Shown here one piece after another: positions 22,252-28,692 of a stretch of 64,000 nt of DNA. This stretch comes from an uncultured Acidobacteriota bacterium (GTDB lineage Bacteria > Acidobacteriota > Thermoanaerobaculia > Multivoradales > UBA5704). The first letter of the stretch is position 1, and each line of letters opens with the position of its first letter. A model generated the notes under the pieces. It did no database searches and was not told the DNA's origin. It saw only the letters and a list, made by a program, of their open reading frames with translations. The stretch is taken from assembly GCA_963761645.1 (NCBI GenBank), contig CAVXIG010000010.1, positions 81,266 through 145,265 of the forward strand, read 5' to 3'. A program made the translations under genes and the position numbers.

Positions 22252-23487
22252 ATGAAGGTCGCGATCCTCGGCGGCGGGCCGGCGGGGCTCTATTTCTCCC
22301 TGCTGATGAAGCAGGCCGACCCGGCGCACGAGGTCGTCCTCCTCGAGCGCAACGCCCCGGACGCCACGTTCGGGTGGGGCGTCGTCTTCTCGGACCAGAC
22401 GCTCGGCAACTTCAAGGCCGCCGATCCGGAGTCCTTCCAGGAGATCTCGGACAACTTCGCCCGCTGGGACGACATCGACATCCACTACAAGGGGCGGACG
22501 ATCACCTCCGGCGGCCATGGCTTCGCCGGCATCGCCCGCATGAAGCTGCTGGAGATCCTCCAGAACCGCGCCGCCGAGCTCGGCGCCGACCTCCGCTTCG
22601 GGTGCGAGGTGCGCGACGACTCCGATCTCCCCGCTCTCGGGCTCGGCGACGCCGACCTCGTGATCGCGGCCGACGGCGTCAACAGCGCCGTGCGGCGGGC
22701 GCACGCCGAGGAGTTCCGGCCGGATCTCGTTTCGGGACAGGCCAAGTTCGTCTGGCTCGGCACGACGCGGCGGTTCGACGCCTTCACCTTCGCCTTCGTC
22801 GAGAACGCGCACGGCATCTTCCAGGCCCACGCCTACCGGTTCAGCGAGACGCACTCGGCCTTCATCGTCGAGTGCGACGAGGCGTCCTGGCGCAACGCCG
22901 GCTTCGACCGCCTGGACATCGACGCCACGATCGCCGCCTGCGAGGAGATGTTCGCGCCCTGGCTCGACGGCCACCGGCTGCTCGCCAACATCCCGCCCCA
23001 CCAGCGCGCGGCCCCCTGGCTCAACTTCACCCGCGTCCACTGCGAGCGCTGGTGGCAGGGGAACCTCGTGCTGATCGGCGACGCCGCCCACACCGCCCAC
23101 TTCTCCATCGGCTCGGGCACCAAGCTCGCCATGGAGGACGCGATCGCGCTCTCCCGCATCCTCAACGGCCCTGACGCCGCGGATCTCCCGCGCGCCCTCC
23201 AGTCCTACGAGGACGAGCGGCGCACCGAGGCGCTGCGCCTCCAGAACGCGGCCCGCAACTCCATGGAGTGGTTCGAGAACGTGCGGCGCTACGCCCGGCT
23301 CGATCCCGAGCAGTTCGCCTACAGCCTGCTCACCCGCAGCCAGCGCGTCAGCCACGAGAACCTCCGGCTGCGCGACAGCAAGTATCTCGAAGGGGTGGAG
23401 CGCTGGTTCGCCAGCCGGGCCGAGCCGGAAAGAGCTGCCCAAGGCCCCTGCCGCCGATGTTCACGCCGTTCACGCTGCGCGGGATGA
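22252..23487 (+). CDS. FAD-dependent monooxygenase (N-terminal module of salicylyl-/2-aminobenzoyl-CoA hydroxylase-reductase type)
   Basis: [20 protein letters not shown]... GxGxxG; [18 protein letters not shown] site; 3-prime end overlaps OYE start by 31 nt in a different frame. Confidence 0.75.
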
Positions 23488-24540
23488 CGCTCGAGAACCG
23501 CGTCGTGGTCTCCCCCATGGACATGTACAGCGCCGAGGACGGCACGCCGGACGATTTCCATCTCGTCCACCTGGGCGCGCGCGCGCTGGGCGGGGCGGGG
23601 CTGATCGTCACCGAGATGACCTGCGTCTCCCCCGAGGCGCGCATCACCCTCGGCTGCACCGGCATGTACCGGCAAGAGCACATGGAGGCGTGGCGGCGGG
23701 TGACCCGGTTCGTCCACCAGCGGAGCCGCGCGAAGATCTGCCTGCAGCTCGGCCACTCGGGCGGCAAGGGGTCCACCCGGCTGATGTGGGAGGGGGAGGA
23801 CGAGCCGCTCGACGCGGACGGCTGGCCGATCGTGGCCGCCTCGCCCCTCCCCTTCAAGCCCGGCATGCGGATGCCCCGCGAGATGACGCGCGCCGACATG
23901 GACCAGGTGCGCGACGATTTCGTCCGCGCCGCGCGGATGGCGATCGAGGCGGAGTTCGACATGATCGAGCTCCACTGCGCGCACGGCTATCTCCTCTCGG
24001 GGTTCATCACGCCGGTCTCGAACCGGCGGACGGACGAGTACGGCGGCAGCCTCGCCAACCGTCTCCGCTTCCCCCTGGAGGTCTTCCGGGCGATGCGCGA
24101 GGTCTGGCCCCAGGACCGGCCGATGTCGGTGCGCATCTCGGCCACCGACTGGGTCGAGGGGGGGATCGAGGGGAGCCACGCCGTGGAGGTCGCGCAGGCG
24201 TTCCACCAGGCCGGAGCGGACATCATCCACGTCTCGGCCGGCCAGACGGCGGCGGACGCCCGGCCGGTCTACGGCCGCATGTTCCAGACGCCGTTCTCGG
24301 ACCGCATCCGCAACGAGACCGGCATCCCCACGATCGCCGTCGGCAACATCACCGAGCCGGACCAGGTCAACTCGATCATCGCCGCCGGCCGCGCCGACCT
24401 CTGCGCCCTGGCCCGCCCCCACCTCGCCGATCCCAACTGGACCCTCCGCGCCGCCGCGCAGCTCGGCTACACCGCGCAGCCCTGGCCGGTGCAGTACCTC
24501 TCCGGCAAGCAGCAGCTCGAACGGAATCTGAGCGCAGCGG
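23457..24540 (+). CDS. Old-Yellow-Enzyme-like NAD(P)H:flavin oxidoreductase (reductase module)
   Basis: [24 protein letters not shown]...IVTEM...[37 protein letters not shown]... OYE signature; lies in the same open frame as the downstream hydratase. Confidence 0.8.
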
Positions 24541-24569
24541 CAGGCGGAGCTGTTGGACGAGCACGATTG

Positions 24570-26663: not shown

Positions 26664-28296
26664 TCCTTGGAAGAACGTCCAACACGTCCAGCGCCCACGT
26701 GGACACCTTCTGCCGCGAGTCCCTGCCGCCGCCGGAGCTGATGCCGGACCTGCGCTATGACGCGCTGCCGGAGCTCGCCTATCCGGACCGGCTGAACTGC
26801 GCCGCCGAGCTGCTCGACCGGCGGATCGCGGAAGGCGACGGCGACCGCGTCGGTCTTCCACTCCGCCGGCGGCCACTGGACCTACCGCCAGCTCCTGGAG
26901 ACCGCCAACCGCATCGCTCACGTTCTGGTGGAGGACCTCGGGATCGTGCCCGGCAACCGCGTGCTGCTGCGCGGGCCGAACAACCCGATGATGGCGGCCT
27001 GCTGGTTCGCCGTGCTCAAGGCCGGCGGCGTGGTGGTCTGCACCATGCCGCTGCTGCGCGTGCGCGAGCTGACCTACATCGCCGACAAGGCGAAGATCCG
27101 CCTCGCGCTGACCGACGCGCGGATCGCCGCCGATTGCGAGCAGGCCGCCACCTCGCGCGGAACGTGATCCATTTCAACAGCGCCGAGCCCGGCTCGCTCG
27201 AATCCCTGATGGCAGGGCAAACCCGCGACGTTCGACAACTGCGACACCGCCGCGGACGACACCGCCCTGATCGCCTTCACCTCCGGCACCACCGGGCAGG
27301 CGAAGGGGACGATGCACTTCCACCGCGACGTGATCGCCTGCTGCGACTGCTTCCCGCCCTACGTCCTGAAGGCGGAGCGGGACGACATCTTCTGCGGCTC
27401 CCCGCCGCTCGCCTTCACCTTCGGGCTCGGCGGCCTGCTCCTCTTCCCGCTGCGCATCGGCGCCTCGGCGCTGCTCCTGGAGCAGGCCTCGCCGCCGAAC
27501 CTTTTGCAAGGGATTCAGGATCACCGCGCGACCATCGTCTTCACCGCTCCGACCGCCTACCGCGCCATGGCCGATCTGGTGCAGGGGTTCGACATCTCGA
27601 GCCTCAGGAAGTGCGTCTCGGCCGGCGAGACCCTGCCGAAGCCGACCTTCGAAAAGTGGAAGGAGGCGACCGGCCTCGAGATCATCGACGGCATCGGCTC
27701 GACCGAGATGCTCCACATCTTCATCAGCTCCTCCGGCGACGAGATCCGCCCCGGCTCCACCGGCCGGGTCGTCCCCGGCTACGAGGCGCGGGTGGTGGAC
27801 GAGGACGGCAACGAGGTGCCGCCCGGCACCATCGGACACCTCGCGGTGCGCGGGCCGACCGGCTGCCGCTACCTGGACAACCTGGAGCGGCAGCGGGTCT
27901 ACGTCCGAACGGCTGGAACCTCCCGGGCGACTCCTACGTCCAGGACGCGGACGGCTACTTCTGGTACCAGGCGCGCACCGACGACATGATCGTCTCGGCG
28001 GGGCACAACATCTCCGGCCCCGAGGTCGAGAGCGTGCTGCTCGATCATCCGGCGGTCGCGGAGTGCGGCGTGGTGGCGGCGCCGGACGAGGGTCGCGGCC
28101 AGATCGTCAAGGCCTACGTCGTGACTGCGCCCGGGCTTCGACACCCGGCCAGGAGCTGATCAAGGAGCTGCAGGACTTCGTCAAGGCGGAGATCGCGCCG
28201 TACAAATATCCGCGGGCGATCGAGTTCGTCGACAGCCTGCCGCGCACCGAGACCGGCAAGCTCCAGCGCTTCCGCCTGCGGGAGCGCGCAGGTTGA
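26660..28296 (+). CDS. aryl-CoA ligase (AMP-binding enzyme; benzoate/2-aminobenzoate-CoA ligase-like), at least 5 frameshifts
   Basis: GTG start in GTGA overlap with ACAD stop; pieces in ORFs 25481..28159, 26928..27167, 27312..27989, 28063..28296: ...[19 protein letters not shown] (AMP motif)...YGSTE...[43 protein letters not shown]...[16 protein letters not shown]. Confidence 0.75.
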
Positions 28297-28692
28297 GCGA
28301 CATCCTCCTGCCGGAAGGGTGGGCCAAGCCCATCGGCTACGCCAACGGCATCGCCGCCCGCGGCCGGCTGGTCTTCGTCGCCGGCCAGATCGGCTGGAAC
28401 CCGGCGACCTGCCGAGTTCGAGACCGACGACTTCGCGGCGCAGACCGAGCAGACCCTGCGCAACGTCGCCGCCGTGCTGCGCGAGGCGGGAGCCGGCCCC
28501 GAGCACATCGCGCGGATGACCTGGTACATCACCGACAAGCCCGCCTACCTCGCCGCCCGGCGCGACATCGGCCGCGCCTGGCGCGAGATCCTCGGCCGGG
28601 TTTATCCGGCGATGGCGGTGGTGGTGGTGAGCGCCCTGATCGAGGACCGCGCCAAGGTGGAGATCGAGGCGACGGCGGTGGTGCCCGAGTAG
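28293..28692 (+). CDS. ridA: RidA/YjgF family enamine-imine deaminase (frameshift around 28410)
   Basis: TTG start in TTGA overlap with ligase stop; [37 protein letters not shown]... then ...[41 protein letters not shown]...[27 protein letters not shown]. Confidence 0.75.

Follow-up and report, generated by a model that had tools for sequence, protein, structure and literature searches.

Positions 22252-28692 of a 64,000-nucleotide stretch of DNA from an uncultured Acidobacteriota bacterium (assembly GCA_963761645.1, contig CAVXIG010000010.1, positions 81,266 to 145,265), which is referred to here as the window, probably carry a five-gene operon of the abm type that belongs to a soil member of the Thermoanaerobaculia and processes anthranilate as its coenzyme A (CoA) ester. 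The same reading attributes the odd reading frames of this region to insertion and deletion (indel) errors in the sequence. A first-pass annotation of the raw letters had described six genes for the CoA-dependent aerobic degradation of an aromatic acid. The pathway type is borne out, but the number of genes falls to five after correction, since the predicted flavin adenine dinucleotide (FAD) monooxygenase and the reductase of the old yellow enzyme (OYE) type are one gene. The operon consists of the following features, with protein lengths given after frame correction where this was necessary.

22252-24569, plus strand: fused FAD monooxygenase/OYE-type flavin mononucleotide (FMN) reductase, one gene, 773 amino acids (aa) corrected
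24639-25484, plus strand: crotonase-superfamily gene, 281 aa, with TTG 24639, 3' of AGGAGAAGG, as its more plausible start
25494-26663, plus strand: acyl-CoA dehydrogenase (ACAD), 389 aa, intact in the window, with all four ACAD Pfam domains
26660-28296, plus strand: aryl-CoA ligase of the AbmG type, 546 aa corrected, seen as AMP-binding fragments in the raw sequence
28293-28692, plus strand: protein of the Rid (YjgF/L-PSP) superfamily, 132 aa corrected by removal of a 1-nt insertion at 28414

The hallmark of an abm-type cluster is present here, in that a ligase, a fused flavoenzyme, β-oxidation-like enzymes and a YjgF/Rid protein are co-oriented in one cluster. All of the domains named in the first-pass annotation are recovered by Pfam and NCBIfam models, with Ribonuc_L-PSP appearing after frame correction. 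This operon type is not new. It has been known since 2001, is widespread, and is already annotated by public pipelines in close relatives. Judged by gene content, the Thermoanaerobaculia version is a compact five-gene form.

The corrected fused protein scores 1274.4 bits against the equivalog model NF006101 (cutoff 1078), and its residues 1-767 align to positions 1-764 of the 768 in the profile. By this match it is a homologue of 2-aminobenzoyl-CoA monooxygenase/reductase and of salicylyl-CoA 5-hydroxylase, which agrees with the ACMR/SdgC-type assignment made earlier. Its gene begins at ATG 22252 behind a GGAGGA ribosome binding site. The monooxygenase half contains the motifs GGGPAG (residue 7), ADG (140) and GDAAH (276) and the OYE half contains HCAHGY (574), which we take to have flavin-binding or catalytic roles. 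At residues 420-425 (23509-23526) the OYE domain reads SPMDMY, with an Asp at the position where YqjM-type OYEs presumably carry a flavin-modulating Cys (SPMCMY).

Fusion of the two domains is the rule among homologues. All of the best 120 homologues from a search of 5.8 billion proteins are fused enzymes of 731-826 aa with both Pfam domains, and they carry names such as 'anthraniloyl-CoA monooxygenase' (JGI) and 'bifunctional salicylyl-CoA 5-hydroxylase/oxidoreductase' (NCBI). Likewise, tblastn searches with proteins from the close relative L001 find fusion at 80 of 80 related loci, with a full-length match in a single frame wherever the contig suffices. One of the relatives (L052, 7467-10070) encodes an 868-aa fused enzyme in one frame whose Ala/Gly/Ser-rich linker is about 80 residues longer; the inter-domain linker therefore tolerates large changes.

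The corrected ligase has no internal stop and keeps the core motifs of adenylating enzymes A3, A5, A8 and the A10 Lys, including GSTE (348), RTDD (441) and PRTETGK (529). Ranked against solved structures, it matches the anthranilate-CoA ligase 4wv3 best (322 bits), ahead of benzoate-CoA ligases at 297 (2v7b) and 269 bits, and the structures of acetate, fatty-acid and other acyl ligases score well below these. The proposed check on this gene, whether it groups with fatty-acid ligases or with those for aromatic acids, thus comes out in favor of the anthranilate- and benzoate-CoA ligases. The protein is 63% identical to Ralstonia solanacearum 'abmG' and 53% identical to an AMP-binding protein of the Arthrobacter plasmid pAL1, which was equated with ARUE_113p00220 by gene order. 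Anthranilate-CoA ligase activity has been measured for ARUE_113p00220 (PMC3534580). These similarities indicate that the ligase of the window is probably an anthranilate-CoA ligase.

The crotonase-superfamily protein exceeds the threshold of NF006107 ('enoyl-CoA hydratase family') with 471 bits against a cutoff of 330. Among solved structures it is nearest to the uncharacterised putative hydratase 3g64 and to the PaaG isomerase 4fzw_C. In an alignment made by eye to the rat hydratase motif, Ile and Phe/Thr occupy the positions of the two catalytic Glu residues, and the protein appears, as a lead only, to be without both canonical hydratase glutamates. One of its Asp residues aligns with an Asp in the PaaG isomerase, presumably the catalytic residue of that enzyme. 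The neighboring ACAD has the three-domain architecture of its family and the catalytic-base motif YEGT at residue 365. Its top matches among solved structures are the uncharacterised Burkholderia ACADs 5jsc and 5idu (476 bits).

Relatives of the operon were collected with the monooxygenase domain as query and one genome per species, which yielded 578 loci. The best of them come from metagenome-assembled genomes (MAGs) of soil Thermoanaerobaculia (Acidobacteriota), followed by Gemmatimonadota, Holophagales and Terriglobales. Two short-read contigs served as intact references for frame correction. L001 (96% identical) encodes a 777-aa fused open reading frame (ORF), a 277-aa crotonase, a 389-aa ACAD, a 543-aa ligase and a 132-aa Rid protein. 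L083, a 48-kb contig, is syntenic with window positions 14145-28693, where most of the sequence is 92-97% identical in nucleotides (84% in a TonB-like gene), and its five intact genes encode proteins of 781, 277, 389, 542 and 132 aa. The ACAD of the window is 97% identical to that of L083.

All 56 of the related Acidobacteriota and Gemmatimonadota loci that extend far enough to include Rid have their genes in the order fused enzyme, crotonase, ACAD, ligase, Rid. In most Thermoanaerobaculia relatives 13-280 nt separate the fused enzyme from the crotonase, and tblastn finds no homologues of the short-chain dehydrogenase/reductase (SDR), the MarR regulator or the thioesterase in the clusters of these relatives. 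An SDR gene does occupy this gap at 33 other loci, mostly from Gemmatimonadota. The spacer of the window is about 70 nt long and unrelated to the 178-nt spacer of L001 (3838-4014), which contains GC-rich inverted repeats, CCTCCCCCTTCAGGGGGAGG ... CCCCCCTCCTGACCTCCCCCC, that look like a repetitive extragenic palindromic (REP)-like element or a terminator. More elaborate gene orders occur in other bacteria.

Ralstonia solanacearum: fused enzyme, SDR, MarR, crotonase, ACAD, abmG, thioesterase, RidA-family protein
Paracoccus pantotrophus: fused enzyme, SDR, MarR, crotonase, ACAD, thioesterase, RidA-family protein, AMP-binding protein, then an ATP-binding cassette (ABC) transporter
Deinococcus psychrotolerans: fused enzyme, SDR, MarR, crotonase, ACAD, AMP-binding protein, cyclase-family protein, thiamine pyrophosphate (TPP) enzyme, RidA-family protein

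In the last of these, a plasmid locus (L086), the genes for the cyclase-family protein and the TPP-binding enzyme lie between the ligase and Rid genes at 6552-8965.

The Rid protein matches PF01042 (Ribonuc_L-PSP) with 80.9 bits (gathering score 27.3) once its frame is corrected. It falls below the threshold of TIGR00004 (64.6 bits, cutoff 106.25) and also below that of the enamine/imine deaminase model PRK11401 (40.5 bits, cutoff 222). When aligned to 2cwj, 2dyy and 1j7h, it has a Met (PAM, residue 105) in place of the catalytic Arg (PAR). The same replacement is found in 55 of 56 cluster-linked Rid proteins extracted from Acidobacteriota, Gemmatimonadota, Ralstonia and Arthrobacter pAL1. RidA uses this Arg to bind the carboxylate of its substrate and needs it for imine hydrolysis, and Rid subfamilies that lack it are regarded as probably not imine hydrolases (Niehaus et al. 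2015, PMC4433059). Judged by this residue and by the model scores, the Rid protein is not an archetypal RidA enamine/imine deaminase, as the first-pass annotation had it. Because it lacks the Arg and fails the RidA models, the argument from deamination to an amino-substituted substrate is only a hypothesis and does not follow from family membership.

The Met-type Rid protein is nonetheless tightly tied to this pathway, occurring nearly one-to-one with the fused flavoenzyme in at least five phyla. Among 72,556 plasmid records, the Rid type is present in 232 and the fused enzyme in 240, with nearly equal counts by genus (Ralstonia, 137 records with Rid and 137 with the fused enzyme; Paracoccus, 12 and 12; Ensifer, 9 and 9; Arthrobacter, 4 and 4). 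A tentative proposal, which we regard as possible but doubtful, is that the Met-type Rid protein is the missing deaminase of the pathway and hydrolyzes the CoA-bound enamine 2-amino-5-oxocyclohex-1-ene-1-carbonyl-CoA. In such a protein the Arg might be dispensable because the carboxyl group of the substrate is tied up as a thioester. If this is true, it would provide the first function for an Arg-less Rid lineage, and the five conserved genes would make up the smallest gene set for the lower pathway.

Anthranilate is the most likely substrate on the evidence of gene content and homology. It is favored because the relatives of the ligase are anthranilate-CoA ligases, because the context of a crotonase and an ACAD suits a dearomatised CoA ester, and because the JGI name for the fused enzyme is anthraniloyl-CoA monooxygenase. 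It is also favored because the Deinococcus cluster includes a cyclase-family gene that is possibly kynurenine-formamidase-like. If the cyclase does have this character, as we suspect, the cluster might be connected with tryptophan/kynurenine catabolism.

Alternatively, the same operon may have salicylate or another ortho-substituted benzoate as its physiological substrate and process it via salicylyl-CoA, as in SdgC-type systems. This alternative is unlikely, although it draws on much of the evidence that weighs against the reading of the region as an anthranilate operon with indel errors. The NCBI name of NF006101 is salicylyl-CoA 5-hydroxylase. Salicylate induces a Massilia homologue with the annotation sdgC (PMC13215587), and Cupriavidus metallidurans CH34, which has abm genes, fails to grow on anthranilate but does well on salicylate (PMC8879955). 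The absence of the deaminase Arg counts on this side as well, and with it the Rid protein alone implies no amino substrate. Three further points tell against the preferred reading in other ways. The ligase reaches 362.4 bits against TIGR02262, just short of the cutoff of 375.25, with a query that contained four placeholder X residues. The SDR, MarR and thioesterase proteins of Ralstonia have no tblastn match anywhere in the window. Finally, the technical origin of the indels is deduced from the sequences of relatives rather than from reads.

Other evidence argues against salicylate. The ligase has an anthranilate-CoA ligase both as its best structural match and as the nearest of its characterised relatives. 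For a gentisate route one would expect genes like those of pAL1 for a cupin, a FAH-family protein and a thioesterase, and tblastn with these three pAL1 queries alone (cupin, FAH, thioesterase) finds no homologue in the window, and by this search no gentisate-cleaving cupin dioxygenase or FAH-type hydrolase. The cluster conserves instead a crotonase and an ACAD, which fit a dearomatised CoA ester. The JGI naming of the fused enzyme and the Deinococcus cyclase-family gene beside the ligase, if it is indeed kynurenine-formamidase-like, point in the same direction.

The assignment of five genes depends on how the reading frames of the raw sequence are interpreted. The window has a G+C content of about 69%, and both a frame plot of third-position GC and a simple six-frame segmentation indicate that the coding frame shifts repeatedly without a gene boundary. 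It changes from frame 1 to 0 near 23430 within the monooxygenase/OYE region, from 2 to 0 at 26852, 0 to 2 at 27907 and 2 to 1 at 28124 within the ligase, and from 0 to 1 at 28413 within the Rid gene. Alignment of the window to L001 and L083 locates the frame-breaking positions. In the fused gene these are 23422 (+1), 23450 (+1), 24530 (-2), 24555 (-2) and about 24567 (-1), where TTT is read as TT, and in the ligase they are 26852 (+1), 27159 (-7), 27211 (+1), 27907 (-1), 28126 (+1) and 28140 (+1). Together with the insertion in the Rid gene, the operon has about 12 frame-breaking indels over 6.4 kb relative to its intact relatives. A 2-nt difference at 26682 was also considered as an error and rejected, since correcting it destroys the N-terminus of the ligase; this difference is taken to be genuine, and it lies within the poorly conserved first dozen codons of the gene.

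These indels account for the unusual gene junctions that the first-pass annotation had described. In the raw sequence, FAD_binding_3 is found at 22252-23487, and Oxidored_FMN and ECH_1 share one open frame of 738 aa at 23268-25484. Of the two raw halves of the flavoenzyme, one matches positions 1-393 of NF006101 with 590 bits and the other positions 387-759 with 670 bits. The 31-nt overlap between monooxygenase and OYE genes exists in the letters, from ATG 23457 to the stop TGA 23485-23487, but as gene structure it is produced by the net +2 frameshift from the insertions at 23422 and 23450, which fall in the inter-domain linker. ATG 23457 corresponds to a Met internal to the fused protein of L001 (PPMFTPF). 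The frame shared by the OYE and hydratase genes is likewise open as written. It arises because the indels at 24530, 24555 and about 24567 displace the OYE stop codon out of frame, so that the frame runs on into the crotonase gene. This gene, which is a separate 277-aa gene in both L001 and L083, is on that evidence a gene of its own and not a continuation of the OYE frame.

The junctions at the 3' end fare similarly. The letters GTGA (26660-26663) and TTGA (28293-28296) are present, but the genes that they were said to join are frame-broken. The raw ligase is not one ORF, since its coding frame passes from 2 to 0 to 2 to 1 between 26660 and 28296. The frame opened at 26660 stops at 28157, and the TGA at 28294 lies in another frame. 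The raw Rid gene opens in frame 0 (28293), but its stop (TAG 28690-28692) is in frame 1. The check that had been suggested for the monooxygenase and OYE genes, whether they form one ORF in a polished sequence, is answered in the affirmative by the corrected frame and by the uniform fusion of the homologues described above. Fusion in the real genome still rests on the indels being errors.

From comparison with the relatives, we judge the gene overlap, the frame that runs on into the crotonase, and the breaks in the ligase and Rid genes to be indel errors of sequencing or assembly and not biology. The indels are read in this way because unrelated flanking genes carry indels of the same type and relatives are intact. 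Isolated indels occur across the window at a density of roughly 1-2 per kb, in the operon and flanking genes alike. They are predominantly 1-nt insertions, and homopolymers are not their sole sites. A fused E1 dehydrogenase, which is one 813-aa gene in L083 with 97.4% identical DNA, is interrupted in the window at just two sites, 14161 and 14536, each a 1-nt insertion, such that Transket_pyr (Pfam) positions 7-66 and 68-167 fall in different frames. More isolated insertions are present at 16264, 16606, 17830, 18283, 18902 and 19129, and the amidohydrolase genes upstream of the operon are also broken by 1-nt indels. A GT4 glycosyltransferase (53026-54226, breaks in 53250-53605) and a GDSL lipase (60050-61263, breaks in 60049-60342) are fragmented likewise. 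Matches to the ACAD, ligase and Rid protein are split in a similar manner in L008 and L013, a pair of public MAGs from the same clade that we take, by their contig names, to be long-read assemblies.

A second explanation is that the frameshifts are genuine and that this strain's copy of the operon is decaying into pseudogenes. The number of frame-breaking indels in 6.4 kb, set against intact relatives, would suit such a history, but we consider it very unlikely. The E1 dehydrogenase, amidohydrolase, glycosyltransferase and GDSL lipase genes have an equal density of 1-nt indels. After frame correction the operon genes have no internal stops, including any derived from substitutions, and their proteins are 93-98% identical to those of L083. 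Relative to L083, the ACAD has a ratio of nonsynonymous to synonymous differences (pN/pS) of 0.085, and the first 307 monooxygenase codons have one of 0.082. Codon bias persists across the operon, with a third-position GC of about 0.95. The decay of bacterial pseudogenes is usually biased toward deletions, in contrast to the indels seen here, which are mainly insertions.

The least probable alternative, that the monooxygenase and OYE domains are truly separate, translationally coupled genes and that this lineage has a split form, can appeal to the position of ATG 23457, 31 nt 5' of the monooxygenase-frame stop, and to a linker that varies in length and tolerates change, as in L052, but is hardly credible given that this ATG encodes an internal Met in L001 and has no Shine-Dalgarno sequence before it, that the split depends on exactly those 1-nt insertions that are strewn across the window, and that every related locus and top homologue compared has the fused form.

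Programmed frameshifting was also considered and rejected, since the breaks are found at scattered sites and within conserved domains of unrelated genes, and relatives that are 92-97% identical do not have them. A scan of the whole window with Rfam gathering thresholds and ARAGORN reveals no RNA genes, and thus no riboswitch or leader that would account for the frame anomalies. No promoters or terminators above shuffle expectation are found near the operon in a scan of 20500-29800. Oddities of ORF structure anywhere in the window, such as overlaps, run-ons and split enzymes, are best left uninterpreted before the sequence is polished.

The operon is flanked by these features.

21399-22235, plus strand: gene with a TonB_C domain (Pfam), ending 17 nt before the operon and co-directional with it
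28716-29453, minus strand: class I methyltransferase (Pfam Methyltransf_25 and Methyltransf_11), convergent with the operon and marking its 3' boundary
31483-32550, plus strand: IS110-family transposase with DEDD_Tnp_IS110 and Transposase_20 domains

Among the relatives, only the closest (L001, L002 and L083) have the TonB_C gene upstream of the operon, and it is outside of the conserved cluster. Immediately behind the Rid gene, at 28693, the nucleotide synteny with L083 breaks off. Just 3' of the operon, the stretch from 29431 to 33026 has a lower GC content (64-66%) and weak codon bias. It may be an insertion, a reading suggested by the end of synteny with L083. On the 5' side, about 2.3 kb of L083 (6865-9216) is missing from the window at 20957-21503, and 546 nt of unaligned window sequence is present instead. 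The corresponding part of L083 contains a ParE toxin/antitoxin pair and most of a gene for a 517-aa hypothetical protein. A few kb upstream of the operon, at 16240-19130 on the plus strand, the window and L083 share two tandem amidohydrolase genes (Amidohydro_1 and Amidohydro_3, 505 and 431 aa in L083) and a gene for a SnoaL_2 protein. The products of these genes could conceivably help to provide the aromatic acid.

The 2-aminobenzoyl-CoA 'hybrid' aerobic pathway encoded by abm genes was first described in Azoarcus evansii (PMC3534580, PMC4539516), and papers on genomes list it as a matter of routine. In homologous systems, the ligase forms 2-aminobenzoyl-CoA, which the flavoenzyme hydroxylates and then reduces, and the product of the A. 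evansii flavoenzyme is 2-amino-5-oxocyclohex-1-ene-1-carbonyl-CoA (PMC4539516, PMC3534580). A C7H8O4-CoA ester, tentatively cyclohexanedione-carboxyl-CoA, was found only in anthranilate-grown Arthrobacter (PMC3534580), which suggests that nitrogen is lost at the level of the CoA ester. The curators of GapMind left this pathway out for lack of knowledge (PMC9007349).

By analogy, the operon of the window could operate as follows. The ligase would activate anthranilate to 2-aminobenzoyl-CoA, as its 53% identity to the pAL1 ligase and its best structural match suggest. The FAD domain of the fused flavoenzyme would then use O2 to hydroxylate C5, and its OYE/FMN domain would reduce the ring to yield 2-amino-5-oxocyclohex-1-ene-1-carbonyl-CoA; both activities are predicted from homology at the equivalog level. 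The enamine nitrogen may next leave as ammonia to give dioxocyclohexane-carbonyl-CoA, a step for which the Rid protein is the best candidate catalyst. Finally, the crotonase might open or isomerise the ring and the ACAD might dehydrogenate the alicyclic CoA ester, with general β-oxidation to follow.

Among uncultured Thermoanaerobaculia and Gemmatimonadota of soil, a route of this kind, which depends on O2 and handles anthranilate-type acids as CoA thioesters, is common. The crotonase, the ACAD and the Met-type Rid protein, all strictly conserved, are obvious candidates for the steps that come after the flavoenzyme.

Among known systems, the abm clusters of Azoarcus evansii (Schuhle et al. 2001) reportedly combine in one operon, as the window does, an AMP-forming aryl-CoA ligase, a fused monooxygenase/OYE protein, β-oxidation-like enzymes and a Rid protein of the YjgF/'translation inhibitor' kind. 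Both would support a hybrid aerobic pathway that acts on CoA thioesters. Relative to the A. evansii clusters, the window is without a MarR regulator and a third β-oxidation-type gene, and it shows no ABC-transporter binding protein, although no search aimed at the latter was made. The hosts also differ, with Acidobacteriota carrying the operon of the window and Betaproteobacteria that of A. evansii.

The megaplasmid of Ralstonia solanacearum (RSgd_p0031-p0038, CP144383.1) has the same core order of fused enzyme, crotonase, ACAD, ligase and Rid as the window, and the annotations there include bifunctional salicylyl-CoA 5-hydroxylase/oxidoreductase, abmG and RidA family. The Ralstonia proteins are 60-68% identical to those of the window, and the Ralstonia Rid protein likewise has Met in place of Arg. 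Its cluster has three additional genes, with SDR and MarR following the fused enzyme ahead of the crotonase and a thioesterase gene before Rid.

Arthrobacter sp. Rue61a, for which anthranilate-CoA ligase activity and the CoA esters of the pathway have been measured (PMC3534580), offers another comparison. The ligase and fused enzyme on its plasmid pAL1 (ARUE_113p00220 and ARUE_113p00230) are each about 53% identical to those of the window, where the old ARUE_113p locus tags were matched to the annotated pAL1 genes by gene order. A Met-type Rid gene lies nearby but is divergently oriented. Unlike the window, pAL1 has no crotonase and ACAD genes in this neighborhood, and FAH-family, cupin and thioesterase genes are found there instead.

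The hydroxylase SdgC of Streptomyces sp. WA46 is homologous to the fused enzyme, falls under the same NCBIfam model name, and also acts on an ortho-substituted benzoyl-CoA. The sdg route employs separate activating enzymes, SdgA and SdgB, and leads via gentisyl-CoA to gentisate, which is cleaved by gentisate 1,2-dioxygenase. In comparison, the window has one AbmG-type ligase together with the conserved crotonase, ACAD and Rid genes.

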